Assembly (NCBI RefSeq): GCF_037042905.1
Contig: NC_087251.1
Location: 26,352,001 to 26,416,000 of the forward strand
Reading direction: 5' to 3'
DNA: 64,000 bases
From: Lytechinus pictus
Lineage: Eukaryota
This document shows positions 7,739-51,500 of the stretch, in pieces. The position numbers were made by a program, and so were the translations under genes. Below the pieces are notes generated by a model, which ran no database searches, was not told where the DNA came from, and saw only the letters and a program-made list of their open reading frames with translations. Each line of letters opens with the position of its first letter. Position 1 is the stretch's first letter.

Positions 7739-10133
7739 CTGTGTGTTCAGACGTGAGGGATGGAAAGGGGGCAAACAAGTGTAACATGCATTAGTGTACA
7801 CAGGAATATATATATAGAGAGACGACAGCTAGAGGTTGCAATGTACCCCTATATATTCCCATCATCATAACAATTTGATGCAAATGTGTATTAAACCACA
7901 AATACATAAGTGTAATACACATCACTCCCAATAATGGTACATGCCTTTATCTAATATACATGTATGTTTGTATGATAATTTTCTTTCAACCTGTAAAGAT
8001 GCAATTGCAAAAGAGCAACATCGATTCTGCCATTCAACATTTCTACCACTTTTTTCTGAATACCGGCGGTAATAAAACAAGCAAATAGTATTTTCTAAAA
8101 TAGAATATATATTTCACTTAAATCTGAAAGAAAGAGTTTATTGCTGTAAAACATGTATATAACTATTCCACCAATGTAACAATATTTTCAGTATTGCAGT
8201 GAATGAATGAATATGTACTCAACATTTAGAAAATACTCCATATAATGCAATGCACTAGTCATACACTATTAAAAAATACAATGTGGTGACAACACATATT
8301 TGTAACTGCAAATATCTTGCCCCAAATTTAAATTCTTTGTTACAAAAGAAAAAAACAATATAAGTCCTCAACCTTTTATATACATGTATAATTGAGGGGG
8401 GTATAGAGAAAATATATGCAAGAATTTCACAGTATTACAAAAGTTGCTTGAAAAGTTGAATGTTAATAAAAATGAGTCCATGAGTGTTTTGGTGAATTGT
8501 TACAGGAATATGCACAAAAAATTATATTGGCTGTTTAAAATATACAAAAATATAATAAGTGTAAAATATGAACATGATAAAATGGATGGTCAAATTCTAA
8601 AGGGTATCAAAAGCAGGTAAAATGCATTAAAGGGAGAAAGCAAGCATTTGGCTATAATATCAGGAATATCTACACATCTACCATTCATATTCTTGAAATA
8701 TTTTTGAAATGTGTGACAACTCTTAGATATGTGAGCTACATACATGTGGAAATTATTAACAATTTTGCAAAAGGAGTGAATTTTCAAAAATGAATGCAAC
8801 CCCCCCCCCCCTTAAGCCCCAGTCTGAGTACTAAAATTGTTGGAAGCCAAAGATATATTTAAAAATACAAAAATTAGTTTGTTTGTTAGTTTATTTTTCT
8901 TATCATTATTCTGCCTTTTCCTCATGCTTTAATTGCTGAAGAAAATTATTTCAGCTATCAATCCCTCAATGCTTTGTATGATTTGATTGTCAAATAAGCT
9001 GATAAACTAAACATGTACTAACATTTGAGATTTGTGTCAAACTTGGCTATCCATAATTTTAACCACAGTTCAAAATACAGGCCAATATCTTCTGAATAAA
9101 ATGTTGAAAATTAGAATTAGGAATGAAACATGCAGATAAAGGGAAAAGGAGAATGATGCATCGGGGGCCATCTTCTCTAAGAGCAGGGATAAAAGGCGTG
9201 GGGATGTACAAAAAAAGACAGAGGATAAATATAGGCATGATGATGGTAATGTACAATGGTAATCTATGGATGAAGCAGATGAAGGGATGAAAATGTATAT
9301 CATTAGTAAACCATCAATTCAGAACAACTCCAACATGAATATAAAATGAAATTATTCCCACAATGAGAAACATACAAATTCAACTTGTTTGAACTGTAGT
9401 GACATGCATTAAATGCCTAGGAGCGTTAAATAGCAGATTCTCTAAGGGGCTGTTTTATAGAGCTGTAAATATGATACTGAACAAATGCAATACATTTTTG
9501 TGTGATAATTCTTAACCAACATTCAGCTGAAAAATTATCTTTGTAGATTAAAATTCTTATTGTTAATAAACATTTTATTGCACAGTTTATTACTTGTCAA
9601 CATTTGATTGGGTTAAGGAAAATTCTGTACTACATTGCTATCACACCAGGGAAAATTTAGGGTAATTTATTTAGTACAAAAACATGTTTAAATTGTTTGT
9701 AGTCTTGTGGTGGAACTTTATGGAGCATCCCACTACACTATAAATGCACAAATGAAATGAAAAGAAACTTTATAGCATTATCTCTGTTTAATTCATTAGT
9801 AAGCAGATGTAAGGGCTGCAATATAAATTTCAAATATCCAAATATCAATGAAACATGCATGAGTTAAAGAAATGCAAGCAACTATTGTGTTATCCCCAAA
9901 TCACCATGAAAGGAATACAAGGAGGCATGCATTGGTAATTTCTATAAATGAAGGTGTTTTTTCTACCTAAAACTCCTAAAATGAAAGGAAAAAGAAAAAA
10001 GATTATTATTTGGTGAATGTAATAAAAGGATGGTAGCATTCATGATAAAACCACAAATGAAAAACAAGCAAAATGAGATGATGAATGATGCGGGCTTCTA
10101 ATATGATGGTTGCACAAAATGAAGGTGTAATAC

Positions 10134-10247
10134 CATGAAATTCCTTGGCAGCCTTCACTAGGTTGTCCCAATCAAGGGTGTTGTTTGTATCTGGGAGGGG
10201 AAATCCCTGTGAGGTTAGGTCATCAGTACTGGCTGATCTCTCGTCTC
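10134..10247 (-). CDS. SIPA1L: SIPA1L exon 25 (GDERSAS...[23 protein letters not shown]), SPAR_C
   Basis: cttgtAG acceptor, ATG|GTATTA donor, phase 1->1; PLPDT/LDWxNLVxAAK motif. Confidence 0.9.
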
Positions 10248-13200
10248 CTACAAGTTCAAAGGTCACAGGAGGATAATATCGAGGAAGGGTAAACATCAAC
10301 GTTTCTTTATAGTGAGGTTTCCAAGTGATATAGTTTATGTTTTACATTCATGAATGAATAAGATGTCGTGAAGATGAACAGAAATTACAATCAGCAATAT
10401 GCAAATGGACACTTAAGGTTTCTTTGAATATGAAAACTTTTTCAGCGAATGTTGGATTTTATCAATCACAGGTGCAATTGAAACAAACCATTAACATCAA
10501 ATACTCCTTGACAAACTTGACTCGACTCTGATTATCAAACTGAGCACTACATTTACGCTTGGAGATGGTATATCACACAATGAACTTAATTCTGGTGATT
10601 TGAAAACCAACTGCTACTAGGATAAAGTTACAATGACTAATGGTTTGAATTCAGCAGTAAGTCTTGATTATATATTTACATATTACGCGGAGCCACAGTC
10701 ACATGCAATATATACAAACAATTTGAAATACAATATAATCAGCTGGTTTTCGACAAGCGCAAATATTTTCATTCCATACTGTTAAAAAATGTTTAATAGT
10801 ATTCTTAAGAGTAGTTTCAAGCTGTTTATAACCTTATAATGAATACTGGCCTGTTTATCTGTTTATAACATTTGTTCACTAATTTTAAAAAGCCCCAAGA
10901 CATCATGCACATATATAGAGCTAAGCTTAAAGGAGAATGAAACCCTTGAAACCAGCTGAATCCATATCAAAGAGAAAAATCAAAGAAACATATTGTTGAA
11001 AGTTTGAGGAAGATTGAATGAATAATAAGAAAGTTATGAGCATTTGAATATTGAGATCACTAGTGCCATGTAGATCCTCCCATCGGCAATGCGACCAAGA
11101 TCTGTGATATCACACACGTACAACTCCCTCATTACTTTAGTACTTATTTAACTTATATTCTCACTTTTATAGAGTCTATCACAAGGTGAGGTGTTCTCTT
11201 TATGAGATGACAAGTACAGAGGTTTCACAACATTATATCATTGATGAATCGTTTGTCATATGATTAGAATGAGCAAAAAGAGCTGTTTTGGGGTATATTT
11301 TCAGTGTCCAAATGGGAGAGTTGTACGTGTGTGACATCACAGATCTTGGTCGCATTGCCAATGGGAGGATCTCCATAGCATTAGTGATCTCGACATTCAA
11401 ATGCTCATAACTCTTTTATTGCTGGTCCTATTTTACTCAAAGTTTTGTTGATCTTATTCTTTGATTTTTCTGCTTTCACAAAAGCTAACTTGCTCCAAGA
11501 GTTTCATTCTCCTTTAAGGTGAACTATCTGGGACCCATTGCATGAGAGTTACTACTATTGTAACTTTGCCATCTGATGGTAACTGCCATGGTAACAATAC
11601 TCAACAGCCAATCAGAATCAAGGATTACATAAAAGAAACCATTGGATAACAAAGTTACCATAATAGTAACTTTTACGCAACGGGACCCTGTAGACTTGTT
11701 ATCTTTCACATCATCATCTCATAACTCACCATGCAACATGGTCTTCTCCGCTTGCATCTTGCTGGGCATGGCTCCGGACTGCGTGCTGGTCACAATGAAC
11801 TCTGACCTGGGTGTTGGATGGGACTGCTTCCTTGACCGGGGGTAGGTGCCCACATGGTTGGGAAGGCTCTCCTCCGAGACGGTCCGGTTCAAAGGAGGCG
11901 ACTGGGAGTTCAGTGTAGGGGTCTTATTCTGTTGTGCATTCTACAGAGTGTGAGATTTAATGAATGAGAGGAGGGGGGGGGGGTGGTGAGGAGAAAGAGT
12001 AAGAACAAGAAAATGTTTGTAAAATAATATATGCATTTTTCTCTGGAAATGATCTTGTAAAAATACAGTCCGATTCATCAAGGGTAGGCATTGCACTTTT
12101 GTTTTCTTTGTATAACGCATGAAACAAGAAATCAATAGATTTCACTTTCACATAATAATAACATAAAAGCATTGATCATACATGCATTCCCAGTATTTTT
12201 TTTTTTTTGGGGGGGGGGTTGTTAATACAACCAACAAGCATCAAGTCTAACACGTCAAATAAAAAAGTAGAATTAAAATTTTCGAATCAGTTGCCAACAC
12301 TGAAGATGAAAAGACAAAATTAATTCTGGTTTGTCAACTACTACTAGAATCAACAAAACTTGGTTAATAAAGATTAGGAATTTTAGTTGTTAATTTTACA
12401 TGTTGAAAACAATCTAATTCTTCTATTGACATGAATAATTTAAGATCACAACATCATGCTACTATAGGGGACAAAATCCAGCCAAGCACTCAGAACAAAA
12501 TCCCAATTAACCAACTCTTCTCTTTATCTCATATCTACAAGTAGAAACACAACCAATTCCTATTTTTTTTTAAATAGAAATATACCCTTTTAAGCTCTAG
12601 AATCTATAATCTAAAAGCATTAGATGATCTGCCAAACCTCATGATGTGGCTTGTTAAATAGAAATATAAAAACCAGCACCAATACAGAGTGCTTTAGAAA
12701 GCAGGTCCCACAAGTACCATTGCAAAGATGTCCAAAATCCCCCTGAATTATAGGGGGAAACAAAGCTGTTGTTCAGGAAAATTAGCATTAGTATGATGCC
12801 ACCGGATGTTCTATTTTGTACTTTTCACTAGTTTTAGCCTCAAATTCAAATGCAGATAAGTTTTTTTAAGGACTTATCTATGAGAATACCTGGGACCCCT
12901 TTTATACACTTTATCAAAAGGATAAACACGCTCTCGGCAAATCGAATGGGAGTATTTCAGAGGCTTGTAAGAGGCAACACCAAATGTCACAAGTTTATAA
13001 AACAGAGTCCACATCTCCAAATGGTGTGATTCTTCTTAAAATTAATCTAAACTTTGAAGTAATAATTTCCTTGCTACTTGCTCATGATTGAGAATGAATG
13101 AGATGTGCATTAATTAGTTTCACTTCATATTTCAATACCAAATATTTTTTTTCATATTGAATTCCAGAGTAGATCATTCACATTGTTGCAAGGGTGTTCA

Positions 13201-16200
13201 AAACCTTGTATTTCCTCTCCTTTTTTTTTAAATCCATCAACTGAAATCCTGTACAAATACAAGGGCAGACAATCCCATTGGAAACAGTTTTATGAAATCT
13301 GCTTTTATTAACTCACCTAAACATTTACCATATAACTGATACAAGGTTTTGTTCCCCAGCATTGACAAGCTCCCTTGGTATGCAAACCCTAAGTGCAATA
13401 TGACTGGAGGGGGGGGGGGGGGGCTAATGGCAGAAAGGATTGGATCAAACATATCCTAAATGCCTGCTTTATGATAAGTTGAAAATCAGGTTGTGTTAAT
13501 TTTCAGATTTGTATTCAATATCAACTTCTTCCGCCATTTAGCCCCTGCTAGCTTTTTAAAGCATCTCAACCATGAAGTTTAGAGTTAAAATTGAAATTGT
13601 TATATTCCATACAGACGGGCATACACATTGGGTGAAATAATCAACTTTGAATTCATAAGGGCAGATCACCCATATGCTCCTTTGATAAAAAAAAATATAT
13701 GCAAACCTTGAATGCACCACGACCCATTACCATGACAACATATATTTTGAGAGAGATATTTACCCCCGTATTAGGCACACGTGAGATGCAGATTTGGAAG
13801 TGCGGAGTTCGGTTAGTAGTAGAAGTAGCAGCCACGATGTGTTCCTCGGAGCCTGCTTCCTGGAGGGAGCCTGGGATGGTTACCATGGTAACAGCAGGGG
13901 CGGAGGTGGAGGTGGGGGACGGGAGGGGGCTGTAGGAGGCGGAGGATGATGATGAGGGGTGGGGTTGATGTGGGCCATCATGGTGGCCGTTTGAGATGAT
14001 TTGGGGGTTGCCGGCCACGTTAATTATAATGGAAGATGTGTGTCGAGAGTCTCCATTCACTCTCTGTGTGGATCGTATAATATATTCATTTCAATTTTTT
14101 ATCAATGTTTTTTTAATGATTTATGCAGATAGTTCAGTGAGGTGACATTTACATTGGTTGAGGGGGATACGAACAATTTTGATAAAGGTGGTCGGAGATC
14201 ATCCAATTTTGTACAAATTTGTGAATTTACAAGTGTTTTTTTTTTTCATCAGGAAATATGTTTTTAAATGTTGTGTGTATTGTATCATAAGAAGAAGAAT
14301 GAGTTCATTGTTGTGAAAGAGCATAGGAAAGGTAATGTCAGTGGTAGATACATGCAGGATCATTCACAATACAAGAATCATACAAAATAAGTATAATAGT
14401 ATCAATGAAGTCATTCAGTTTAGTGATGAAGTAGGAATGAACCAATATACACACGATATGTCATTTGTAAAGAGAGTTGATTAATGAATGAAGGACATAA
14501 CACATGAATTCCATGATCACAAAAGGCATACAATCAACAGTCCAAATTATACAGGTGATGATACATATATTTTTATTATTGGAATGAGCATGAAAATATA
14601 TATATGTACAAATATACAATTCATTCAAGTTTTAACAATATGGAAATGACAAAACATCACAATGGACAATGACATCACAATAAAACAATAGACAGATGTG
14701 GAATGTTTGATGAAGTAAATTACCACAATGTCAACATTCAAGATAAATAAATTATATATGTGTGTGTAAGTGTGTCAAATGATATTATAGGATATTAATT
14801 CATTAAAATAATGTGCAGAGTGAATAATATGTTAGAAATGTTAGTAAAGGAGAAATGATGTGAATTTTGGAGTGAGATCAAATTGAGGAATAGGGGTGAA
14901 GGGGTGTGTTTTAAGGTATGACGGGATAAGGATAAAAGCAAAAAAACAGAAATATATGCCAGAAAGTTAGAAAACATATATCTCTCTCTCTGTTAGATTA
15001 TATCAAATATTAGATACAAACTTATCTACATATCTATAATAGTTCAAACACACTAATGGTACATGTAAAATCAAACAAACAGCATTATTTCCCATTATAG
15101 CAAATGATTAATTCTAAGACTGGTTCTCTATAGATCATAATGTTTATCAAAAGCAATTGAAGGTCACTTAGTCACAAAAAGTCTACTGGAAGTGTTATGA
15201 TACTGAGAATGAAATATAAACATTGGCAAGTACGAGATCAAAATCTTTAATAAAAAAATCTTTAATTTGAAAATACCTATAGATGGTTAACTAATCAATA
15301 GTTGCATTAATTAATCAGTGTGGTTTCTTATAGTATATTTCATTTTTTTTTGTAAAAAAAAGTTAATAAATTGTATCATATGGTATCTATGATAATTGTT
15401 AAATTTATATCAAATCACATACATATGTTTTTGTTTTCTTTCTCAAAAAACAGCACCTTGCATAGCATATATATGACATATTATCCACATCTTACAATAC
15501 ATTTTGCAATCAGTCACTCTTATGAAGCTATTTACAATTAATTCAATACTTCCATTAACAAGATATGAATTCCTAGGTCCAATTTTAGAAGTTACTTTGG
15601 AAGCCTTCATAAATATCTAGTAGGGATGTTCTTATACATTTATCTCAAATACACTTTCATTACAATCTTTACCAAACATTGCTATATTCAGTAAAGTGTA
15701 GTATAGTATAGTATAGTATAGTATAGTATAGTATAGTATAGTATACCACAATATTCATTAGGAAGACTGATTTTGTATTTAAAGAATTATGTACATATTT
15801 TTACATGAGCAGCTTTACATTAAAAAAGTTCAATGATTAGAACATACATATTTGACTTTGTTTATAATTTGGGAATCTTTTCCCCGAGATGACATCCAAA
15901 TGTATTTGAAATTCATTCAAGTTTAACATATTATATAACCAAATTGTATAGAAAGTAATCTCTGATTGGTCCAAGTGTGAATCTTAGGATTTGGCGTTGA
16001 CATCACATTGGGCAATATAACCATGATTTCTTTTTTAATTATCTCTTCTTACTTTAAAAGAAACATAATTATCACTTTTCTTCACCAAGATTATATGAAG
16101 AGGAGTTAAAATTGGAACATGCTTACTATGATTTATCTAAACTACATCACAAAAGCATGCAAGTCAAAACTAGGTTGAATTGGACCACACTTTTATGGAG

Positions 16201-19200
16201 TGCCAATTGGCAACTTATTCACCAAGTATAAATTATTTTGATACTACAGTGAATATTTGCCTTTTTGAATTTCTGTTATGAAATTTGAAAAAAAGATAAA
16301 GACATTATGACCACATTTAATATAAATGAATTATTATTATTTGATACATTATCTTTGTCATGAATATTAAGAAAATAATTGAACTTAGCATTCCATATAA
16401 GCGTGGACTAAAATTCATAAGTATAGAGTTAAACCTGGGTTTAATTCTGAAAATATCATCCCATGGTTTATACAGACAAACAAGATACCAGTACATACTA
16501 TCAAAGCTGACTGAGAGGCATACTTCAATCACTACAGTATCGAGGGTCCATTTAATCAAAGAGTAGTTCTGGCCAAAGGCTCGAAATGTGGAAGAAACAT
16601 TCTCCAAAGGATTGGGAAAAGTTGATTAAAATGCATGATGAATTCATGATGAATTTATGTATGCTGCATGATTCTAAGAATATCCAAAATGATAAGAAAT
16701 TATTACATTGTGAGTCAACTGCAATTTACACAGAAATATATGCACTATGGGACTTAACATTTCAAAGTTTTCTCTATTCAAATTTTGAATGAAAGGGCAT
16801 TTGAACAGTAATTTGCAGGAAACACCAAATGGCACATAGAGAATTGTTTCGATACTGATGGATTGCCAATATTAAGGGTACTAAAATTGGCATAACTATA
16901 CCTCTCGGTCAGCTTTGGTTGCTTCCTTCACCAATATCCCAACTAAACCCATATCATCAATCATTGGATTGGATTCCTACCTCCCTCTCCTGTACAGCAT
17001 TGTAGGCATCGGGGGCCAGGAGCTTCCGAAGGTCATCCTGAACGCGATTGTTTGCCTGAGCCTTGAGGGGCGTGGTCCCACCACTCCTTACGGTGGGCGT
17101 GGTGGCCGAGTTGCCCCGTGACCTGGCAGCAAGGGATTCGTTGGATGACTTGTGACCATCAAGAGGTCTTCTAGAAATAAAAGTTTGAAAATACCTTAAT
17201 TATTAATAGATACAAAGGTGATCACCAGTCGAGTTCAATAATCATATTCCTTTTTTCTTTTCATGTATTCCACAGCAAAGTGTCCAATGAAACAACATCA
17301 TTTTACCTTTTTTACTCTCTCTGTTCCTGAGGAAGTTATCAAATGGAAACAGTTCACCAATGTATTTGTTTTTAAACATCAAAACTAGAGAATAAATTAA
17401 CAGCTGAAATACTGATGAATGTAATTTTACAGTTTGACAGATCAATGCTCCAACAGTGTCTTTGAACAATCACCATTCAAATAATGAATGACTTTTTATC
17501 CACATGGTCTTTAGGTTAAACTCAACAGAATGACACATACCTTCTTGCCATTTTAGGGCTTGTGCTGGACTCACTCATGCTGCTACTGGAAGATGCAGAT
17601 GGTGCTCCGCCTCTCCTGTGTATACTGACATAGTCTCCAGATCCGCCCCGCCTTGGACTCTGTGCCCTCTTACGGACCGTCTCAGGACTCTGTGCAGATC
17701 TCCCTGGCATCGGGCTACGTGCGGGCGACTGTCTGCTTGCTCTGAGGCTACCGTAGTCTCTCGATGCCCCTGTTCCTGAGCCACCAGAGAGGGTGGAGTG
17801 GGTGGAGTGGTCACTGATGTTGCTAGGTGTGGCATGGTGATGTGGTACGATGCCTGCAAGGTGGTTTGGGCGCTGTAGTCTCGGTTGCTCCATGTCAATT
17901 CCCTCCCTGCTTCTTGACTGAAGGGAAGTGAAAAGCAGGCTAACATGAATTTACCAGAATAAGAAATTGTAATACCGGTAGTTGAAATCAAGTAAGGAAA
18001 CCAATTTCACCATATCTTTAAGGCAAAATGTTATAAAGATCTAATTCACTTTTTACCAATTCCCTTGACAGGATGAGGATGTATTTAAGGTCCAAATGCA
18101 TAGTTTGTCTAAAGACATGAAAAACCCGGGGGACTGACTTAGAAGGTGGTAGTAAATCTACTGTAGTTGCTAGACTTTCATTTTGCTCCATCTATTTTAG
18201 CTAGATATACAAGATTAAACCCACCCCTGCATTACTTGACTGACTTTAAAGTAAATTAAACATGCAAAGATTGTCTTTACCTGATATAGCTGTTCCGTTG
18301 GGCTGTAACGCTCAGCCATTGCATAGTTACTCCTATTCTCTTCCTTGGTATCCTGTGAGCCGGGTGCATTGGTCGCTGCTGGGTTGGTACGGTACATGCC
18401 CTCTGGAACGTCCTTGGAGACGGTCACACCATTGTCATGGTAACCATTAGCATCGTCTCCCGTATCATACCACTTCTCGTCGCTGGTGTTGGTTGACAGG
18501 GTGTCTCCACTGCTTGTGTGCTTTATTGTTGCCTGGTGATTTTAAATATTAAAGAAGAAGGATAAATGTTAAGTTGAAATTAACTGAATTGCAGCTATAC
18601 ACATAATGTAAGCTGACAAATTGAAAAATTGGCACGGATTGATATAGGAATGACTTTCACCCGTGATGCACTTATTTCCCCATGATGTAACTTGAGCTAA
18701 CAAGGGAAAAGCTGCACCATGGGAGGAAATATTAAATTAAAAAAAAAAATCCAAACATATGCCTTCTAATGTTGTCAATATGAGAATAGCCCGGAAAATA
18801 AGTTGAGATTTTTCCCTGCATCCTTTAGCTATTTTCCAACTAATCCCTTTTATATCATTATTCGAATGTAGATGATTAAAAAACAAGTGGAATGCCTCTG
18901 GCGGTCTCACCTGCATCACGCGATTCAATATAGCAGCAGTGCTGACTTTGAAAACTACTATAACTCGCACAAGATGTTCAGTGTTACTTGGTTACTCTCA
19001 TGTACACGTTTTATGAACTAGACCAATACACTTACAGAGATATGATGGTAATTCAACAAATACCCCCAACATGGCCAAGTTCATTGACCTTACATGACCT
19101 TTGACCTTGAACATGTGACCTAAAACTCGCACAGGATGTTCAGTGATACTTGATTACTCTTATGTCCAAGTTTCATGAGTCAGATCCATAAACTTTAAAA

Positions 19201-20909
19201 GTTATGATGGTAATTCAACAGATACCCCCATTATGGCCAAAGTTCATTGACCTTTGACCTTGGTCATGGGACCTGAAATGCGCACAGGATGTTCAGTGAT
19301 ACTTGATTACTCTTATGTCCAAGTTTTATGAACTAGACCATTATAATCGCTGATGTGGTTTACGGTACACCATGTGAAGTGTTGTAGAAACAGTGGATAG
19401 GAGAAGAGAAGAAATGGATAGGCGAGAAAGTGGAGATTTGAGAGTAGAGTATTCTTTCTTGAAAGTAGTCCTGAAAAGGACTGTAAACCAGGAAAGATTG
19501 ATGAGTTGAGAACAGCTTGAGGAGTAGAGCTAGTGAGGAGATGCTGGCTTGAGTCGGCGAGTAGAGATGATGAGTAGTAGAGAGACTCGACGTTTCGGGC
19601 AGGTTGACTGTCCGTCTCCTGAAGACTTCAAAAACTTAACCTTAGGTTAAGATTTTGATGTTGATTCCCCCAACATGGTCTAAGTTCATTGACCTTAAAT
19701 GACCTTTGACCTTGGTCATGTGACATGAAACTCAGGCAGGATGTTCAGTAATACTTGATTAACTTTATGGCCAAGTTTCATGAACTAGGTCCATATACTT
19801 TCTAAGTTATGTTGTCATTTCAAAAACTTAACCTTCGGTTAAGATTTGGTGTTGACGCTGCCGCCGCCGTCGGAAAAGCGGCGCCTATAGTCTCACTCTG
19901 CTATGCAGGTGAGACAAAAACCAGATTTTAACAGATTTTAATAGGTTCTCTTATCTCAAGAAACTGCATCTCTCTATCCTTAATTTCCATTGGAAATGTG
20001 CTCTTATTTGAGGGATGGATTTCTTCACAAAAAAAAAACTCTAAAAAGATGGGAAATTATTAATTTTGTTCCGATGGTATCATCGGTCTATAACTCTGTT
20101 CCTTTTCACCTTAAAAATAAATTATCTATTTATTTGGAAAAATTGGGAGATTTTCAGCATAGATTTTTTCATATTTTACTTTATATTCAGCATAAATAAA
20201 TGCTGATGATTATGTAACCTTCTTCTTCTTCTCTTATTGATTTCTTCCAGTCTTGGAGAATTGCGAGATCCAGTGGATGGATACACAGAAAAAGTAGCTT
20301 GACAGGAATATAGAGAAAGGATAGAGATAAGAGCTTGGAACAGGAAGAGGATGGGCTCCAATATATCACAGGAATGTCTAATTGCTATTCACCAACAAAG
20401 AATATTGACTTAAAATTATCACAATAAACCTTAATAAAATACTATAATAATAATAATTATCAGCAATCGATATTATGGTCTTACCTGTGCTACATTATGA
20501 AGTGGATATCTAGCTTTGGGAGTGACAAACTGAGGCTGTTGCTTGTCCTGCTCTCTGCCCCTATCCTGGGGGGAGGGGTTGGCTTCATTTGGTCTATGCC
20601 AATTAGGGTTGGTCACATCTTTGTAAACTGAGAAAATAAGAGAACCAAATTAATGTCACCAAATACTATTTTGAGTAGTCTTAAAGATAAATGAGAGCTA
20701 TTTCCCAAGATCTTCTTGGGTAATCATATGGTATGATAATGTTAAGTGAAGAGTGGTGAAGATAGGTGATGATGATGCAGCTGCTGCTGCTGCTGCTGAT
20801 GATGATGATGATGAGTTTTCTCTATTTCATGTCTGTCTGTTATTGGCTGGACTCCGTATCCACATGGGTAAGAATGAGGAGGAGGATGGTGGTGGTGACA
20901 TTGGGGATG

Positions 20910-20941
<32 letters not shown>

Positions 20942-23900
20942 GATGATGATGATGGATGATGGATGATGGATGATGGATGATGATGATGACGACGACGATG
21001 ATGGCAATGATATCAATGATGATGATAATGATGATGATGATAGCAATGATATCAATGATGATGATGATGATGATGATGGTGTTGATATCAATGATGAACT
21101 AATATTCTTCTTACAAGATAAACAATGTTATTAAACTCTAACGAGTAACACAGAGTTTAAAATGCAAAACTAACAAAGAATTACCTATCTCAATGTCTCA
21201 AATCATGAAATAATTTAAAATGAATATAAAATTTACTTGGTAAAGACAGAGCTTAGTTTAAACATGGGTTAATGCACATACTCTTGCCTATGAGAATGTT
21301 ACCTTAAAAACAAATGGTAACTTTATTCACTGCCACCATCATTTACCTTTTGTTACTGCTTATTTTATTACAAAGCAATGTAAAAATCTTTTACGTAAAT
21401 AAAATATAAATACTCAGCCATAAAAAGGCTGCAAGTTTAAAGTCAATGGAATAATAAGTTCTTAGATACATCCTTCTATCAAGAAAGAGTTAAGTTCAGA
21501 AATTTTTACTTTGGACGTTGTGTATCTTTTTTTTTGGGGGGGAGGGGTAAGAAGCTCAAGGTAAAAGCAGAAAAGTGGGGTCAAATATTTTTTTTTCAAC
21601 TCACTAATCATTTGCAGTACATTTTTTAAAACTAAATTGCAGATAAGCTTATATTTGCTCAGGTTTTATTCATGCAGATGTTAAAGAGTGTCAGCTTGGG
21701 CGTGAACAAATTCTATTCAATGAAGTGAGAAATACAATCATAATTATGAATAAATCTACCGAACTTAAACCATAAATAAAAGAGTAAACAGCAAGCCTGA
21801 AATGTGCTAAATACCATACAGAAATTCACACCGCAGGAAGTAGAGCCAGATTGATGGCTTGTAGCAACCATATCCAACAACCAAAAACAACAAAATGACA
21901 CACTCCAATAACAACCATCCAATCATAATACACCATTTGAAAATCACCAATAATCCCCTTCACTCCTCACAGCTACAGACCTCCCAATATTTCTTGCTGG
22001 AAAAGAGCTAAAAATTATGTTTCCTAACTCGAAATTCAATAGTCTGCATGCCTGTACATGAAAGGGCTGATAACAAGTTGGTGGAGGAGTACTATCCATT
22101 AATTGTGATTACTCATAAGAAGATAAATTTCATCTTAAAGTCAATTCAAAGATTCTATCTTTATTTTATATACATTCTAGACTTATATTTCAGTACTTAA
22201 AAGCTGGTAAAATTTTAGTTGAACCAGATAGACCTTTAAAATCAAAGCAGCTAATAATTATGCCGACGACTGGTGATTAATAATTCAATATTTTAATCTG
22301 CCCCTATTTTTTACAATACTTGGTGTTGCCAATTTTGTAATTTAAAATCTAAGGGTGTGTGTGCAGCCATTGTGATTAAAGCGAGTGCAGAGTGCCTTTA
22401 AAGATCTCACCCTTGACTGGATGTTGGACATGAGAAGGAGCAGACATACACCTGTTGAGTGCTGATTGCATTAGAGCAAAAATTACATCAATAATATCCC
22501 TGAAGTCGTACATTTATATCATTCTTAAGATACTTCTGAATAGCTTGAATGCACTGCTCCAGTAACTGATAAAATGTTTCCCAGTTGATCAAAGAGGACA
22601 TTCAATAGTTTATTGATCTCAATAGAGCCCTTTTTACAAGATATTGACAATTTATAATATTCTTGATGGAATAGAGAAATCTAAAAATATCTTCATTCCC
22701 AAATTGAACATCAAAATCATTCTTGCAGAATTTTGAATTTGATTAGTTTTAGTAACTCTGACATCCCACTTTGCAGAATTTCATATAAAGTTGGCTTGAA
22801 TGATAAATTTCATATGGAAATTCACTTGTACGATATTGGATGGGATCACTAGATTGAAGTCCCACATATAAGGTTAAGAGATGGAGTAAATACTTGAACT
22901 GCATAATAATCTTGAATTGTTGTACCTCTAGTCCTGTAGTTATCCAGGCTGTCCTCGAGGGATCCCTGCCTAGAATGGGCTCCAGTCCCAATACGATCCA
23001 GGTCCTCCTGAGAACTCCTGAGCCTAGCTTGCATGTCATTAGGTCTCCTCCTCTGCTCCCTGGCACTCCTTCTCTCATGGACCATCCTCATAAAGGACCG
23101 ATCACCCGCATCATGGGACAAACCCCTACTGTGACCACTACCACGGGAGGATACCTCTTGAGGCGTGGTCCCACCACCGGTGTTCGCCTGCTGGTGTGCG
23201 CGGGTGTTCACATCTTTCCAGTAGTCAACAGCAGCACGGTAAGGGTGCTTGTTGGCGGAGCCGCCCGATGGTGGATCCGTGACGTTAATGCGACGCTCGA
23301 AGGTCGTGATGGCCGAGCGCACGCTGCCTTTGACCGGTAGACCTTCTTCATTAGTGCCTGGAGGGTAGATAGGTGTGTTGGGGGCTGAGCGCAGCATCGA
23401 TGGGGGTTGCCCAGGTGTGGATGCAGATCGGGAATGATGTGCTGACTGTCTAAGATCTAACAGGAAAACATAAAAAAAATATATTACGAAGTTTGACTGC
23501 ATAAATACGATATGGTTCTTTTCTAACAAACTTTCTATATGATCATCAGTATTCTAGTGGATCTAGAAAATATACAATGACGAACTGATCAAGAAGCAGG
23601 GAAACACAGGGGACAAATATGTCCAGTAAAAGAATGGCAGATGAATACTATATTGTTGCTTACCTCTGCTTGACATTGCCAGAGATGAAGAGATCTTATG
23701 AGGTCCTTTGCCAGTGCTTGTACCTCTGTTGAAACCCTGTCTTGCCCCTCCTGGTTGGGTCACTGCTTCACTGTTACCCATATACTCAATTGGTGTACTT
23801 CCTCTGCAAGGGGTAAGAATAAAATCAAATATAGCTATCCACTGCATGCTCAGTCAAATTTTCCCAAAAAGGCAGTTAAGCTGTACACTGAAACAAGTGT

Positions 23901-26900
23901 ATGGGACTAAACATGCATAACCAGCATTAACATCCAATCCCAATTTGTAAAGATCACTGGAAAAGTTTAAATAGTTTGAATAGTGACCCACTGCATGCTC
24001 AGTCAACTTTCCCCAAAAAGGCAGTTAAGCTGAACACCGAAACAAGTGTACGGGACCAAACATGCATAACCAGCATTAACATCTAATCCCAATTTGTAGA
24101 GATCACTGGAATAGTTTGAATACTATACAAGGGGAATTCAAAAACAAGCCTTTGAATTTGACATTTTGACTATAATATCATTTTCAGATACATAAAAGAA
24201 TGTGAGCATATTGTCCCAAATCTAACTGAAGATTTCATTTTCTTTTGTTTCTTTGTGAATGTAGGAATTAACCTACCTTTCCCCCAAACTGAATATTCTT
24301 TTAATCAGTTTATTTGTGAATGTAATAATTTGCCTTCATTTTTCCCCGAAACTTAACTTTCCCATTAATCTGACCCTTTATAAGTGTAAGGATGAACCTA
24401 CCTCCTAGGACTGCCATCTTCACATGGTGGAACAACAACCACCTTGACGGTCTGAGAGGTCCGTAGTAGATCTATCATCTCTTCATGCGTCTGGGTACAT
24501 ACAGCTATCTCACAAATCTAAGGAGACAAAACATAATCAATATGGTGATAATGACAGTTACAATTATAGAGTACTGAATGTAGTGTTTGAAGCACTTTTA
24601 ACTTGTAAATATATAAATTCAACATATAATTGACATAACACACATTATAAAATCAAGTCTCTTTCTGCTTTGGAGAATCAGTAATTCAGTCAGTAGTTGT
24701 AAATCTTGTTTTGTACAAGGGTGATCAGATTCACCTCCCACTTGCGACAATCAACCATATCCCCTCCCTCCACTTTGCATGATTCAGTGCATCCTCCTTC
24801 CTCTTCCCAACCCTCCACTTGTTTCTTGTATGTCTTCTTTGACCGTCCACTTCGCTTCAAAGCCCCCCCCCCCCTCCACCTCAAATGAAAAAGCCCTTCT
24901 TAAAACATGCCTGTCAGAGTTTTTACCATTTCCTGATTCCTCAATTTTTATTTGTTTTCCCCACTACAGCTGATCACCTTCAGAGTGAGTTACTTCTGTC
25001 AATTCTGGTAGACAAATGGCATTTTATAAACAAAAAATGGTACTTCTTCAATCGTACTGACCGCAAACATGCTCTAATCCTATAATGTGCATACTTTACA
25101 TGCAAACTTTTTTTTTTCATTTATTTTTTGCATTACATTTTTAAAGTAACTTTTTAGGGTTGGCTCTTACCTCAACAAGCCTTGCTCCTTTTCTTAGTCC
25201 AGCCTGCCATGCAAACCCATATGGATCTACCTCAACTACTATACCCTGGTAGTGTACATGGAAGCCAAGCTGACCAAGGCCATTACGTCTCAAGGTGATC
25301 TCTTTGGTCTGCAACAAAAAGGCATAAAACAATGAAATAAGTGAACAAACCTAAAATATATTACAAATTAATCTCCTTTTTTTTTAACAAAGACAAAAAT
25401 CTGTTGCTTGAGATGAAGTTATATTGCAAAAGAATTCAGACAAAACTGTTAATAGAAAATTTATAGAGTACAGCAAAGCAAAGACAAGATAGATCAACTA
25501 TTATAAGGCATTCAGCGTTATAAATGCCTTAGATATGGGTAGAGACTTCAATCTCAGTTTATGGTGGTTTTTCTACAGCTGTTTGTATGCTATAAGCAAC
25601 TGTTCTCATGACTGGTGACCAGTTCTTGTGGTATATGAGATATCCTTATTTGTCTTGTTTTGACATAAATAAATGTGACTCTAAGTCCTACTTTACGCTC
25701 TGTGAAACACACCCCAGATGTGTGTAAATCCTGCATTACTTTTGTACAGCTTCATGAAAGACCACCATGGTATGTAACTGAACAACATACAGGCAAAACA
25801 AAATGGGTGATTTCAAGTTCAGTGTTGACCATTTGGTGTTGGTGTTTTTTTTACACGATTATAACACCAAACATAAAATGAAGATGGTCCCAAAAAGTCA
25901 CTCGCTAGTTGTTGAGATGTCAATGATGTGATCTGGATCAGTTTTACAAACTCTGAATAAGTTTTGGAGCTGGGGGAAGCAATCCAAATTTCAACACCAA
26001 GGCTAACACCGGACTTGAAATCACCCAATGTGTCAAGGTCACAGCATACTTACCCTAGTACCGTTGGATACTGCTTCAAATCTCTTGACAATCTCAGGTA
26101 CCTCATCAAGATCTTGATCAGGAATGCGTACTCTAACACAGTTACCTTCGTTGAAGTACAGCTTCAATCTAGAATATTCCAAAAGATTATTGTAAACAAG
26201 GAATCAGTGGTGTGTTTGTGAGTGTATATTGTATCATGTAGAATTATGTAATTGGAATCATTTCAAAAGCAAAGCTATACCAAAGATCATTGGGGGATTT
26301 TCTGAATGAGGATTGTAACAAAATGACATCATTAGAATCTTATTCCACAATTTGTTCATTTTCTACTTTCATTTTCTACCTATTTGCATATTTTCTACTA
26401 CCTTATCCTATTTTCTACTAGCTATTTAAAAGCTCCTCATTCTCTTTTAAATCTTTTTAATCTTCATCATTATCATCATCATCATCATCACAATCATCAT
26501 CGTCGTCGTCATCGTCATCATCATCGTCATCGTCATCACCATTACCATCATCATCCCCGATATCACCACCACCACCACCATCCTCCTCCTTCTTACCCAT
26601 GTGGATACGGAGTCCAGCCAATAACAGACACACATGGAATGGAGAAAAGAACCTCTCTCGTATGGTAGTTTGTTAGAACCATCATATCCATGGAGACAGC
26701 TAGTAAACAATCCACTGGATCTGACAAACTGAAGTCTTCGGCCTAGAATAAGAAATAGACCAATATCATAAACAGATTACATTTTTTCCACCAATAATGA
26801 CAACAAATTGATTTTTCTGAACTGCATTTCTCAAAACACATTCCACGTAAATGTATCAAATTTAAAACTACAGACAACTTTGATTTAAGATCTCATTTTA

Positions 26901-48500: not shown

Positions 48501-51500
48501 AAAGCTGTTCATAAGTTAAGAGCGACTTTAAGAACGACTGGTGATCCTTTCATGTGGTAAATAATATATTCATTGGCAATGGTTAAGCGCGTAAGAAAGG
48601 ATCACCAGTCCTTCTTAAAGTCGCCCTTTAACTTACAAACAGCTTTATGAAACGGCCCCTAGTACCAACTGCTCATACATCTTACAATTGCTCCAGTAGA
48701 ATGATCAGAGGCATATGCTGTAAGACCTGTGCTGTAACCACAACAGTTTCTCAAAACCACTAGATCTCTGGTGGCAAAGGCTTGATCAATTACTACTTAG
48801 TCTGATCTAATTTTGTCCAATTCTCATTAAGGTTCATCCCTCATAGTCAAATCCATTACTCTATTTTTTATTACAAATGATTTTCAATAATGAATTAGTT
48901 TAATATCCTTTTGACCCATTTACCATTTCACAAGATCTCCAGAACTTTGGGCTATGTACATTTTGTCTAATACAAATTTTGTCTACAACCTCTCGGTGTT
49001 TGCTGCATGAATCTTGGACTCAATAGCAAGTTAATTCTCAGGGCTTTTTAAAAATAACCACATTTCTATGATAAAATGTAAAAAAATTGTGCTTATTATT
49101 GGTCTATTCATTGTTCCATGAAAGCAACAACTACTCAGTACACTCGTAACATGTGATGCATCTGAATTGAGATTTCAAAAGAGATGTTCCAGTGCTGCTA
49201 ACAAACATCTTTATTACCTCTTTGTCGCTGGGCGCAAGCTTACTTTCAAGCAATGCTTACCTCACTGGATCTGAGTAGAATCCTATATCTATATCTCATG
49301 TTATGGTCTTTGCTATTCTCCACCGGACTCTCCTGTTCCTCCACTCTCTCCCTACGGACGCTGACAGCCAGAGGACCAAGAAAGTCATCCACACCAAAGT
49401 AGTTCTGATGTTCTACAGGAACAAAATAAACCAGGGACAAGAATAGAATTGTGGGTAAATACATGTATGCATTTAAAACAGAAGGTGTAATATCCTTGAG
49501 TTTATAGGGTCGAACATAAATAAATCATGATCGTCACATTTTCTACATTTATATGCTTTATAATTTTAAAACAACACACATCATCTGATTTGACCACAAA
49601 GTGTTCATAATTGTGTTGATAATTCTTTACACTGATAATATAACTAAGTGAATTCTTTCTTTCCTGATAAAGAAAACAAATTACTACAATCTACTTTCGA
49701 AAATTTCTTATTAAATTCCTTATGAAAAATAGAGCCATCAATTTCATAAGAACATTAATTCTCATAAGAAATGAAATCATGGAAAAGGCTGTTGGCAATA
49801 TTAGAGCTAATGTGTACACATGTTTGGGTCTTTAAATTCACTGAGGATGAAAACCTTTTCTCCATTTCAAATACAAAACAAAACCCAAAACTGTACAACA
49901 TATCCACACTCCATAACAAAGCTTAAACGGACCTGTATATTATCTGCTTCATCATCAGATGGTAATCAGGTTAGCAAAAGTGCTAAATAATTTCTCTATT
50001 GACTTTACAAGGATCATTTGACTGACACAATTCAAAAGGTTAAACATCAAAGTGACAGTCCCAACAGCCTGAGAAAGACTTCATGCACAAAAAATATCCC
50101 CTAATTGACATTGCCTGGCTAAAAATGGACAGGAGGCTACACATCACAGGAAATTTGTAGTGACAGGATTCTGCCAAATTTGTAAAATAATTTTTAATGC
50201 AAGAATTATAAAGCTTTATTAGGAAATTTAGAGGGTGCCCAACTAAAAAGATTTTGAATGACATTCCTTTTTTTTAAATAAATCAAGTGTTAACCCATCA
50301 CTTGCAATCAAGAAATTGCAAAAAATAATTTGTCTTAATATTTTAAAAATATTAATTGTTTGATACCAGATTACATTAATCACTACAGATAGAATAATAC
50401 AAAAATGGTTTTAAAAATGGAATTATAGAGAATAGCAATTATGAAGGCTTTTATTTTTATTTTTTTAATTTTAGGGGCAAACTAGTTTTTGCACCAATAT
50501 ACATGCATATTTTGCCCTTGGTCTTACCATGTTTGTAGAAGTACTTGCGATAATACAGGGCGCCTTGGTCCATGTGTTCTATGACAGGCCCACGCCAGAC
50601 GTAATTGGATTGGTCATCGTTGGTGATGAGCTCGGAAGCCCCCCTCTTCTCAAGAATCGTTTGATGGCGATACCTGGTAGAGTCATAAAATAAGAGTTGA
50701 TTTGATTGAGTCAGTGATTGGAAGTGATGTCATAAAAGAAGAGTTGATACGATTGAGCCGGCAATTGGATAAATGTATTTGAGAATGCATGAGCGAGGAT
50801 GGGATACCGATGTTAATGGGCGGAGGGGAATGACAGTTGTGGAATTTGTTTGATGAGGAGATGGCTCTGATGATACTATGCCACAGTATTCGGAGGAGCT
50901 TCTGAAGGATTGCCAACATTCAGGGAAAGTCTTTTTCTTTGTAAAGGCTTTATATTGCTCATCTTTATAGCTGAATATATTTTATTATTAAAAGAAAAAA
51001 CAAACTTTCATGTTCTTGTTAATTTTAAACTCATTGCATGTGTAGACTTTAGGAGAAACTTTTTTAGTCATGTTGAATATATGGCACTTTCATTACATCG
51101 TAATGAGAAATGGGCTAAGACTGATGAAGAACATGTACTCTACAAAGAAATTATATGTTCATGACAATCAACTTTATGTAAATGGTTTCATTATAAGCGA
51201 TAGACTTCACTTTGCAAGTGACATAAAGCCTTATAACATATAACTCAACAGAAGGGTTGGATTTCATCTGCTCTGCACTCATGCAATTATATCATAATTA
51301 AGATAACTGTCAAACTAATCCTCTATCCTTAATCCATCCAGGTCACATATACTCAGCTATATGAGAGGCTTCACTAGCAGTTTTTCCTGTCCCATTTTAC
51401 CAACTTTTACATGATCCAAAGCTGTGTTATTGTTTAATAAATCATTAATTCACTCACAAATGTAAACAAAATGAAGCAGAGTCTATCCCCATTCCAGTTA

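Follow-up and report, generated by a model that had tools for sequence, protein, structure and literature searches.

A 916-nt AG-free stretch before a regulated exon in a sea urchin SIPA1L/SPAR gene: a 3' splice site with candidate far-upstream branch points

How can the last 916 nucleotides of an intron remain free of AG up to the very acceptor of an alternative exon? This question is raised by a gene on the minus strand of a 64,000-nt window (the whole stretch of DNA that was analyzed) from the sea urchin Lytechinus pictus. Judged by sequence, the host gene is a SIPA1L/SPAR orthologue, a RapGAP that is close to Strongylocentrotus purpuratus (S. purpuratus) proteins. The S. purpuratus orthologue P0003 harbors Rap_GAP (E 4.7e-62), Rap-GAP_dimer, and PDZ domains, and the exons in the window are mostly 81-100% identical to it (~60% in the weakest case). 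Window positions 10006-10245 match SPAR_C with an E-value of 3.3e-05 and 24.2 bits, just below the 25-bit cut-off for this fragment, and the order of Rap_GAP, PDZ, and C-terminal SPAR_C that characterizes the SIPA1L/SPAR family is found. A search for paralogues in the species' own genome, at both DNA and protein level, matched this locus alone. A metagenome scan with a conserved neighboring exon matched 596 patterns, with no relative among them.

The exons and the intron concerned are the following:

16981..17170, minus strand: upstream constitutive exon with its donor GT at 16980-16979 (joints 14063/16981, 11940/16981, and 17170/17541; tblastn match to S. purpuratus SIPA1L)
14064..16980, minus strand: intron 5' of the cassette exon (2917 nt, GT..AG)
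14064..14065, minus strand: 3' splice site AG in the context cacAG/AGAG, defined by RNA joints
13764..14063, minus strand: cassette exon (300 nt, phase 0, RNA joints at both ends)
11730..11940, minus strand: downstream exon (joints 11940/13764 on inclusion, 11940/16981 on skipping, and 10246/11729)

The cassette exon codes for 100 residues of a Ser/Pro/Thr-rich linker, in which no Pfam family was found. From the donor at 16980-16979, splicing proceeds to the cassette exon or, on skipping, to the exon that begins at 11940. Four sequencing runs bear on this choice. X19, X20, and X21 are total-RNA runs that were selected by species label and used as raw reads, while X1 is a fourth run that was seen as contigs and whose RNA status is queried. 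Of the indexed runs listed as matching, none is recorded as RNA. The inclusion joint 14063|16981 is covered by two reads in X20 and by an X1 contig (depth 17.9), and the inclusion joint 11940|13764 by one read each in X20 and X21 and by an X1 contig. Reads with the skipping joint 11940|16981 number six, seven, and three in X19, X20, and X21, respectively, and no X1 contig has it. The exon is thus mostly skipped in X19 to X21 and included in X1, and its inclusion ranges from ~10% to near-full between RNA samples. The first-pass annotation had proposed a frame-neutral exon of 300 nt, which the joints confirm; they additionally reveal that it is alternatively spliced. In X19 to X21, depth is zero over most of the intron, including the end of the AG-free stretch that carries the branch motifs, and no lariat-type joint ("goes back") involves position 16980.

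The AG-free stretch occupies the acceptor-proximal part of this intron:

14066..14981, minus strand: AG-exclusion zone (916 nt, single-copy, non-repetitive, G-poor)

A dinucleotide count finds zero AG on the sense (minus) strand from 14981 to 14066. Read on the plus strand, CT is present at 14064 and does not recur until 14982, exactly as had been claimed from reading the letters line by line. The last AG before the zone lies at 14983-14982 and the next one is the acceptor itself. Based on the RNA joints, this AG at 14065-14064, the first after the zone, is the acceptor of the regulated cassette exon; the joint 14063|16981 agrees with the earlier statement that the zone ends exactly there. CT occurs 3577 times in the 64,000 nt of the window, or once per 18 nt, within the spacing of 15-25 nt that had been given as normal. 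This rate predicts 51 CT in the zone (Poisson probability of observing none ~6e-23), and the zone's own base composition still predicts 27 (P ~2e-12). The remaining 15 dinucleotides all occur in the zone, each at least five times. AG on the plus strand is present at a normal level (61 occurrences), so that the absence of AG is confined to the sense strand of the gene. The intron itself displays the same boundary: its first 2001 nt hold 94 AG with a largest gap of 85, and its last 916 nt hold the acceptor AG only.

The next largest CT gaps in the window measure 247 nt (20852-21099, low-complexity) and 191 nt (50674-50865). The latter lies immediately 5' of another exon of the same gene. As a control for the genome, gap lengths were determined in 20 stretches of 10 kb from 20 contigs, in addition to the window. 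The 20,740 AG/CT gaps in these 200 kb have a median of 11, a 99.9th percentile of 157, and a maximum of 403, and the longest sits in a GAATG-type tandem repeat. Across the gene, 22 acceptors were examined, and at the 21 others the AG-free stretch has a median of 49 and a maximum of 189, compared to 916 here. Within the zone, 374 single substitutions could create an AG, and at 10% neutral divergence ~12 new AGs would be predicted to have arisen.

The description of the zone as non-repetitive is borne out by repeat scans, which found no dispersed repeat family and, as tandem repeats, one weak 34-nt array only (14091-14124), and by its single copy in the 812-Mb assembly. No Rfam family was found in the zone; the sole hit, a SNORD58-like match at 17237-17306, lies outside the zone and scores 22.3 bits (E 0.25), below the gathering score of 42. 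Motifs of the PTB, RBFOX, CELF, and MBNL type show no enrichment in the zone (TCTT 7 against 6.7 expected; TGCATG 1 against 0.6). An isolated 172-nt contig of run X1 maps to 14777-14947 inside the zone with a depth of 12.4. A hidden exon at this place was rejected, as neither strand offers an AG/GT at the ends of the contig.

Directly beside the acceptor, the elements of a conventional 3' splice site are poorly developed. The 40 nt before it are 0.40 pyrimidine, which is the lowest value among the 22 acceptors, the other 21 having a median of 0.65 and a minimum of 0.55. No pyrimidine tract was found in the usual region from -20 to -50. In the conventional region yUnAy is matched once, by CATTGAT at -38, and the sequence after it is 0.32 pyrimidine.

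Branch-site-like motifs are instead gathered at the zone's upstream edge, and one candidate of another kind lies within it (distances refer to the acceptor):

14982..14996, minus strand: CTAAC (14996-14992) followed by (AG)5 (14991-14982), putative branch A 14993 (-929)
14966..14972, minus strand: TTCTAAC, putative branch A 14967 (-903), the first candidate within the zone
14880..14965, minus strand: pyrimidine tract, the strongest in the final 1 kb of the intron (0.63-0.80 pyrimidine in 30-nt windows)
14840..14846, minus strand: perfect TACTAAC, putative branch A 14841 (-777)
14831..14837, minus strand: TTCTAAC, putative branch A 14832 (-768)
14337..14343, minus strand: CACTGAC, mid-zone candidate with A 14338 (-274), followed by 0.72 pyrimidine

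The coordinates that had been given for the two TTCTAAC motifs and the TACTAAC are all exact, and the pyrimidine tract that had been noted after the far-end TTCTAAC is present at 14965-14880. The best pyrimidine tract beside a candidate follows this TTCTAAC at -903 (0.76 over the next 50 nt). CTAAC occurs 28 times on the minus strand of the 64 kb, and a span of 161 nt at the zone's upstream boundary contains four of the 28. Inside the zone there are three, where the rate in 40,131 nt of introns of the same gene predicts 0.3. TACTAAC occurs five times on the minus strand in the 64 kb. The (AG)5 at 14991-14982 holds the final AGs 5' of the zone, all at most 11 nt from the putative branch A 14993, and AGs this close to a branch point are bypassed, as stated in the available part of Gooding et al. 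2006 (PMC1431707).

Taken together, the 916-nt stretch is probably a selected AG-exclusion zone that serves distant branch points ~768-929 nt upstream, with the second step of splicing taking the first AG. In such a mechanism, branching would take place far upstream in the CTAAC/TTCTAAC/TACTAAC/TTCTAAC cluster at 14996-14831, assisted by the tract at 14965-14880. A lariat would form, and the second step would subsequently pick the first AG 3' of the branch. Any intervening AG would serve as a wrong acceptor, so that mutations creating an AG would be purged by purifying selection. The adenosines of the CTAAC cluster are putative sites, and the motifs suggest which of them may branch. The first-AG rule would then operate over ~0.8-0.9 kb, and the distant-branch layout may be what makes the exon regulatable. 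A scanning-type long 3' splice-site architecture with a candidate far branch point, as the first-pass annotation had suggested, is supported by the motif cluster, the tract, the use of the first AG as acceptor, and the poor local region. Whether branching does take place 768-929 nt from the acceptor, with the second step finding the first AG across unstructured RNA, is a proposition that we consider evenly poised. RNA folding that would bring the branch near the acceptor is not predicted, the minimum free energy of -137 kcal/mol being close to the shuffle mean of -141.6 (z = +0.55, 20 shuffles), and a structure that shortens the distance between branch and acceptor was rejected on this value.

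A shorter distance would result if the main branch were nearer, at CACTGAC or at several sites through the zone, and if the distal sites were minor, condition-specific, or "holding" sites of the first step, as has been put forward for distal branch points in vertebrates. CACTGAC matches TACTAAC at five of seven positions and has its own tract, so that the main branch could be much closer than 770-930 nt. In the available part of Taggart et al. 2017 (PMC5378181), distal sites are frequently accompanied by another one in the expected zone, and their share in productive splicing is only moderate. Nevertheless, the upper ~640 nt of the zone alone should hold ~19 AG by the zone's composition. Selection would still be needed there, which argues for a real use of the far-end branch sites, and it is the far end, away from -274, that carries both the CTAAC cluster and the best tract of pyrimidines. 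A nearer main branch is therefore unlikely, although it deserves to be taken into account.

It would be far less probable, indeed very improbable, that the AG-free stretch is unrelated to splicing and either reflects a quirk of composition or mutation, such as strand-biased hypermutation or what is left of a mobile element, or serves another function, for instance as an antisense RNA or a small RNA. The sense strand is G-poor (9.4% G) and pyrimidine-rich along the whole zone, and the X1 contig of depth 12.4 within it could be read in favor of an RNA element. The G-poor composition nevertheless leaves the 27 AG expected, and the dinucleotides on the sense strand (AA 90, GG 6, TG 75) show no product inflated as one-type hypermutation requires. 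The single-copy, non-repetitive character of the zone and the absence of Rfam families inside it likewise speak against this explanation. The zone moreover runs from the branch-motif cluster to an RNA-proven acceptor, limits that a process independent of splicing would not set. That the zone is a misassembly or a reading artefact, or that the exon is not real, can be given almost no weight: independent RNA runs show canonical GT..AG joints at both exon ends, the matching part of S. purpuratus SIPA1L2-like proteins contains the same exon with 85% identity, and the X1 contig fits 14777-14947 with one difference in 171.

The zone, selected for distant branch points as proposed above, can be compared to known systems. 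The following comparisons refer to the available parts of Gooding et al. 2006 (PMC1431707) and Taggart et al. 2017 (PMC5378181). In the former, an AG-exclusion zone of at least 150 nt is classed as "large", and distant branch points are verified to ~400 nt. Verified human and rat exons include PTB exon 11 (zone 381, branch -351), GABBR1 exon 23 (zone 288, branch -275), and α-tropomyosin exon 3 (branch -175). The exon described here resembles them in the AG-free stretch that extends to the acceptor of an alternative exon with use of the first AG, in the consensus CTAAC/TACTAAC-type branch sequence and pyrimidine tract at the zone's 5' end (here by sequence), and in the poor branch site and pyrimidine tract beside the acceptor. 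It differs from the verified exons in that its zone is two to five times longer and its branch point putative, and further in that the host is an echinoid, an invertebrate deuterostome, and that PTB-type motifs are not enriched.

Two unverified zones in the same source are of comparable or greater length: that of a human PTPRS exon, which measures 1126 nt and takes up the entire intron (229 nt in the mouse orthologue), and that of Fugu PTB exon 11 with 590 nt and a predicted branch at -566. Candidate branch sites lie near the 5' end in all of these. The exceptional length that had been claimed holds against the 200-kb control, where the maximum is 403, but bare AG-free zones of 1126 and 590 nt had been mentioned before (PMC1431707). 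Unlike the wholly AG-free PTPRS intron, the zone here makes up only the final third of an intron of 2917 nt; the normal AG density of the remainder provides an internal control that a wholly AG-free intron lacks.

The vertebrate distal branch points that were mapped by lariat reads lie >100 nt upstream, mostly beside a site in the expected zone (PMC5378181). Like them, the candidate sites here are tied to a conditionally skipped exon, and the distance may delay the second step; unlike those cases, the expected zone here has no credible branch site. The zone is best explained as an extreme new member of the distant-branch class of Gooding et al. 2006, with a putative branch. Among the matches listed, literature searches turned up no sea urchin study that deals with AG-exclusion zones or distant branch points.

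The choice of the AG during splicing's second step, and the reach of this choice, have so far been argued from a few vertebrate exons with branches at ≤ ~400 nt, the farthest verified branch-to-acceptor distance being ~400 nt in the available part of Gooding et al. (PMC1431707). The acceptor described here, which lacks a local pyrimidine tract, may score poorly in tract-dependent predictors, and a new acceptor could arise from one base change in the intron as far as 0.9 kb from the exon. If the proposed architecture is true, the working range of first-AG selection would roughly double, and the distant-branch layout for regulated exons would predate vertebrates. The intron would offer a natural substrate in a tractable embryo system on which linear search and diffusion could be compared as ways of locating the 3' splice site, and it could be asked whether the exon's on/off behavior is set by the long tail in the role of a timer.

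The plus-strand dinucleotide CT, which corresponds to AG on the sense strand, occurs 3577 times in the 64,000 nt and not once between 14064 and 14982, as revealed by a count of every dinucleotide in the window (CpG-poor eukaryotic DNA with 65% AT). The first-pass annotation had proposed an AG-free stretch of 916 nt at 14066-14981 in non-repetitive sequence, and both parts of this proposal hold. The CT gaps next in size within the window measure 247 nt (in a low-complexity stretch) and 191 nt, gaps of the other non-CpG dinucleotides do not exceed 324 nt, and all 15 remaining dinucleotides occur in the zone, the sense strand of which contains 360 T, 288 A, 182 C, and 86 G. Scaled to the zone, the CT frequency of the window predicts 51 occurrences (Poisson probability of none about 6e-23), and the zone's own composition predicts 27 (about 2e-12). 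For an empirical background, 20 stretches of 10 kb were sampled from the same assembly (812 Mb), each from a different contig; their 20,740 AG/CT gaps have a median of 11 nt, a 99.9th percentile of 157 nt, and a maximum of 403 nt that lies inside a GAATG-type tandem repeat. The zone itself is non-repetitive: apart from one weak 34-nt array at 14091-14124 it harbors only short two-copy matches, and it is single-copy in the assembly. The absence of AG is therefore confirmed and lies far beyond chance.

The zone forms the 3′ end of an intron that contains 94 AG in its first 2001 nt (largest gap 85) and none in its last 916 nt. The motif cluster and pyrimidine tract that had been assigned to the far end of the zone were all recovered.

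Features of the intron, with motifs in sense-strand order and branch sites proposed from sequence:
16980..14064, minus strand, intron upstream of the cassette exon, 2917 nt
14066-14981, minus strand, AG-free zone, 916 nt by the all-dinucleotide count
14993 (putative branch A), minus strand, CTAAC at the 5′ boundary of the zone, directly followed by five AGs at 14991-14982
14967 (putative branch A), minus strand, TTCTAAC
14965-14880, minus strand, pyrimidine tract, 0.63-0.80 pyrimidine in 30-nt windows, the richest of the intron's last kilobase
14841 (putative branch A), minus strand, TACTAAC
14832 (putative branch A), minus strand, TTCTAAC

CTAAC is found 28 times on the minus strand of the 64 kb, and four of these copies fall within 161 nt at the zone boundary; the next-tightest independent set of four in the window takes up 1629 nt. 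Three copies are located in the zone, whereas the gene's own introns (40,131 nt) predict 0.3. The last 40 nt before the cassette acceptor have a pyrimidine fraction of 0.40, the lowest of 22 acceptors examined in the gene (five with RNA-supported junctions, the remainder chosen by protein guidance). The other 21 show a median of 0.65 and a minimum of 0.55, and their AG-free stretches have a median of 49 nt and a maximum of 189 nt. In the conventional region, yUnAy is matched only by CATTGAT, located at -38 from the acceptor and followed by A-rich sequence. Another acceptor of the gene, that of the exon starting at 50673, likewise terminates a long CT gap, the third in the window by length (50674-50865, 189 nt without sense-strand AG); a CACTGAC lies about 40 nt upstream of this exon, whose pyrimidine tract is normal.

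RNA from four sources was aligned to 9800-18600: X19-X21, rRNA-depleted raw-read runs that carry the same species label and comprise about 1.25-1.3 billion letters apiece, and X1, a contig set. The inclusion joint 14063|16981, which removes 2917 nt with GT..AG borders on the minus strand, is carried by two X20 reads and an X1 contig of depth 17.9. One X20 read, one X21 read, and the same contig span the second inclusion joint, 11940|13764. Joint 11940|16981, which skips the exon, is supported by six X19, seven X20, and three X21 reads and by none of the X1 contigs. As inclusion and skipping joints both occur, 14063-13764 is a genuine 300-nt phase-0 cassette exon. In X19-X21 it is included in about one transcript in 10 (four inclusion-joint reads over two junctions versus 16 skipping reads); in X1 the exon is included, and the skipping form was not detected. 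The acceptor used is the AG at 14065-14064, the first one past the zone, and joint 14063|16981 thus confirms the earlier claim that the zone ends exactly at the acceptor of this frame-neutral exon. A lariat read did not turn up, but the depth of X19-X21 is zero over the 5′ branch-motif end of the zone and most of the intron, so this negative bears on the branch point in neither direction. Further upstream, a tandem acceptor (tAG|AAG) lies at 17167-17173, with 3, 4, and 12 reads for the main joint 17170|17541 and two X20 reads and an X1 contig for the 3-nt-shorter form 17167|17541. Exons 17541 and 17170 are separated by a 370-nt intron with a sub-threshold SNORD58-like C/D-box match (17237-17306, minus strand; 22.3 bits and E 0.25, with the gathering score at 42).

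As described by Gooding et al. 2006 (PMC1431707) and Taggart et al. 2017 (PMC5378181), the second splicing step generally takes the first AG that follows the branch point, and AGs within about a dozen nucleotides of the branch are bypassed, which is why distant-branch-point exons bear AG-exclusion zones. In these accounts the branch sequence and pyrimidine tract lie at the 5′ end of the zone, and the exons are typically alternatively spliced. The L. pictus intron has all sequence hallmarks of this class, namely length, non-repetitiveness, a branch motif and tract at the 5′ end, lack of proximal signals, an alternative exon, and use of the first AG. Because 374 single substitutions could create an AG in the zone and a simple neutral model yields about 12 new AGs at 10% divergence, selection is required for the zone to stay clear of AG. 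The cassette exon is common to Strongylocentrotus purpuratus, whose protein differs by 15% in that segment. Given the class hallmarks and the need for selection, the zone is therefore probably the footprint of candidate branch sites 768-929 nt upstream of the acceptor. Branching would take place at this far-upstream cluster, the second step would then take the cassette acceptor at 14065-14064 as the first AG downstream, and selection would maintain the AG-free state. The (AG)5 following the 14993 CTAAC is consistent with the bypass rule, since all five AGs lie within 11 nt, although this agreement is only suggestive. The main alternative is that the bulk of branching occurs nearer to the exon, for example at -274, and that the far sites are used less often. 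It draws on a mid-zone CACTGAC at that position with a 0.72 pyrimidine tract and is considered unlikely.

A distance-shortening RNA structure is not supported, since the zone folds no better than shuffles (z = +0.55). The zone shows no enrichment of PTB-, RBFOX-, CELF-, or MBNL-type motifs, and Rfam has no family within it. An isolated X1 contig (14777-14947, 172 nt) spans the pyrimidine tract and TACTAAC at a depth of 12.4 versus 17.9 for exons, with no or low depth in the neighboring intron. It carries one difference (14859 T>C) that creates no AG, its ends lack splice signals on either strand, and a plus-strand A-rich tract lies at its 14947 end.

The host, a SIPA1L/SPAR-type RapGAP gene, covers most of the window on the minus strand, as judged from stop-to-stop frames and tblastn with proteins retrieved with the 100-residue cassette exon. 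The nearest proteins are S. purpuratus "signal-induced proliferation-associated 1-like protein 2" isoforms, with 85% identity over the cassette exon and 81-100% over most other exons. The S. purpuratus protein contains Rap_GAP, Rap-GAP_dimer, and PDZ domains, and the downstream window exon 10006-10245 gives a SPAR_C match (E 3.3e-05, 24.2 bits, just under the 25-bit cut-off for the fragment). Current S. purpuratus RefSeq isoforms terminate via read-through of the cassette exon donor, whereas an older model joins the exon to downstream exons, as the window RNA does. Compared with window 13653-13763, the S. purpuratus proteins P0001-P0003, P0005, and P0006 read past the donor (…RVPNTG, then VNISLK… and a stop); isoform X3 (P0004) reads through at the donor of the preceding exon. 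The window donor at 13764 is spliced onward to exons reaching the SPAR_C match, so the read-through models may be truncated or represent retained-intron forms. Elsewhere in the introns, two low-complexity stretches in opposite orientation (20742-21127, minus; 26336-26776, plus) are His-, Ile-, and Ser-rich in translation and have a similar frame segment (19 and 18 residues) in common, which points to a repeated element present in two copies.

The intron downstream of the cassette exon contains a multi-copy element of roughly 590 bp (within 10682-11563), at whose flanks reads disagree (10926/10927 and 11517/11518). Reads from both of its strands are very abundant in the RNA and show strand-specific T>C in one read orientation (for example 11061, 133/228 versus 0/117 in X19) and A>G in the other (11377, 11383). 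A-to-I editing of double-stranded RNA would leave such a pattern; alternatively, the changes may be alleles of other copies.

The layout of the cassette exon is the known AG-exclusion-zone/distant-branch-point architecture and no new kind of system. Gooding et al. (PMC1431707) place distant branch points "up to 400 nucleotides" upstream. Among the verified cases are PTB exon 11, with a zone of 381 nt and the branch at -351, and GABBR1 exon 23, with a zone of 288 nt and the branch at -275; the longer zones of Fugu PTB exon 11 (590) and human PTPRS (1126; mouse only 229) are unverified. Relative to the cases given there, the 916-nt zone is among the longest on record. In human PTPRS the AG-free zone is the whole intron, whereas in L. 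pictus it comprises the last 916 of 2917 nt, and the normal AG density in the rest of the intron provides an unusually clean internal control. A literature search found nothing on AG-exclusion zones or distant branch points in sea urchins. The L. pictus case adds an RNA-proven, switch-like cassette exon in an invertebrate deuterostome, and it would be clearly notable for splicing specialists and directly testable.
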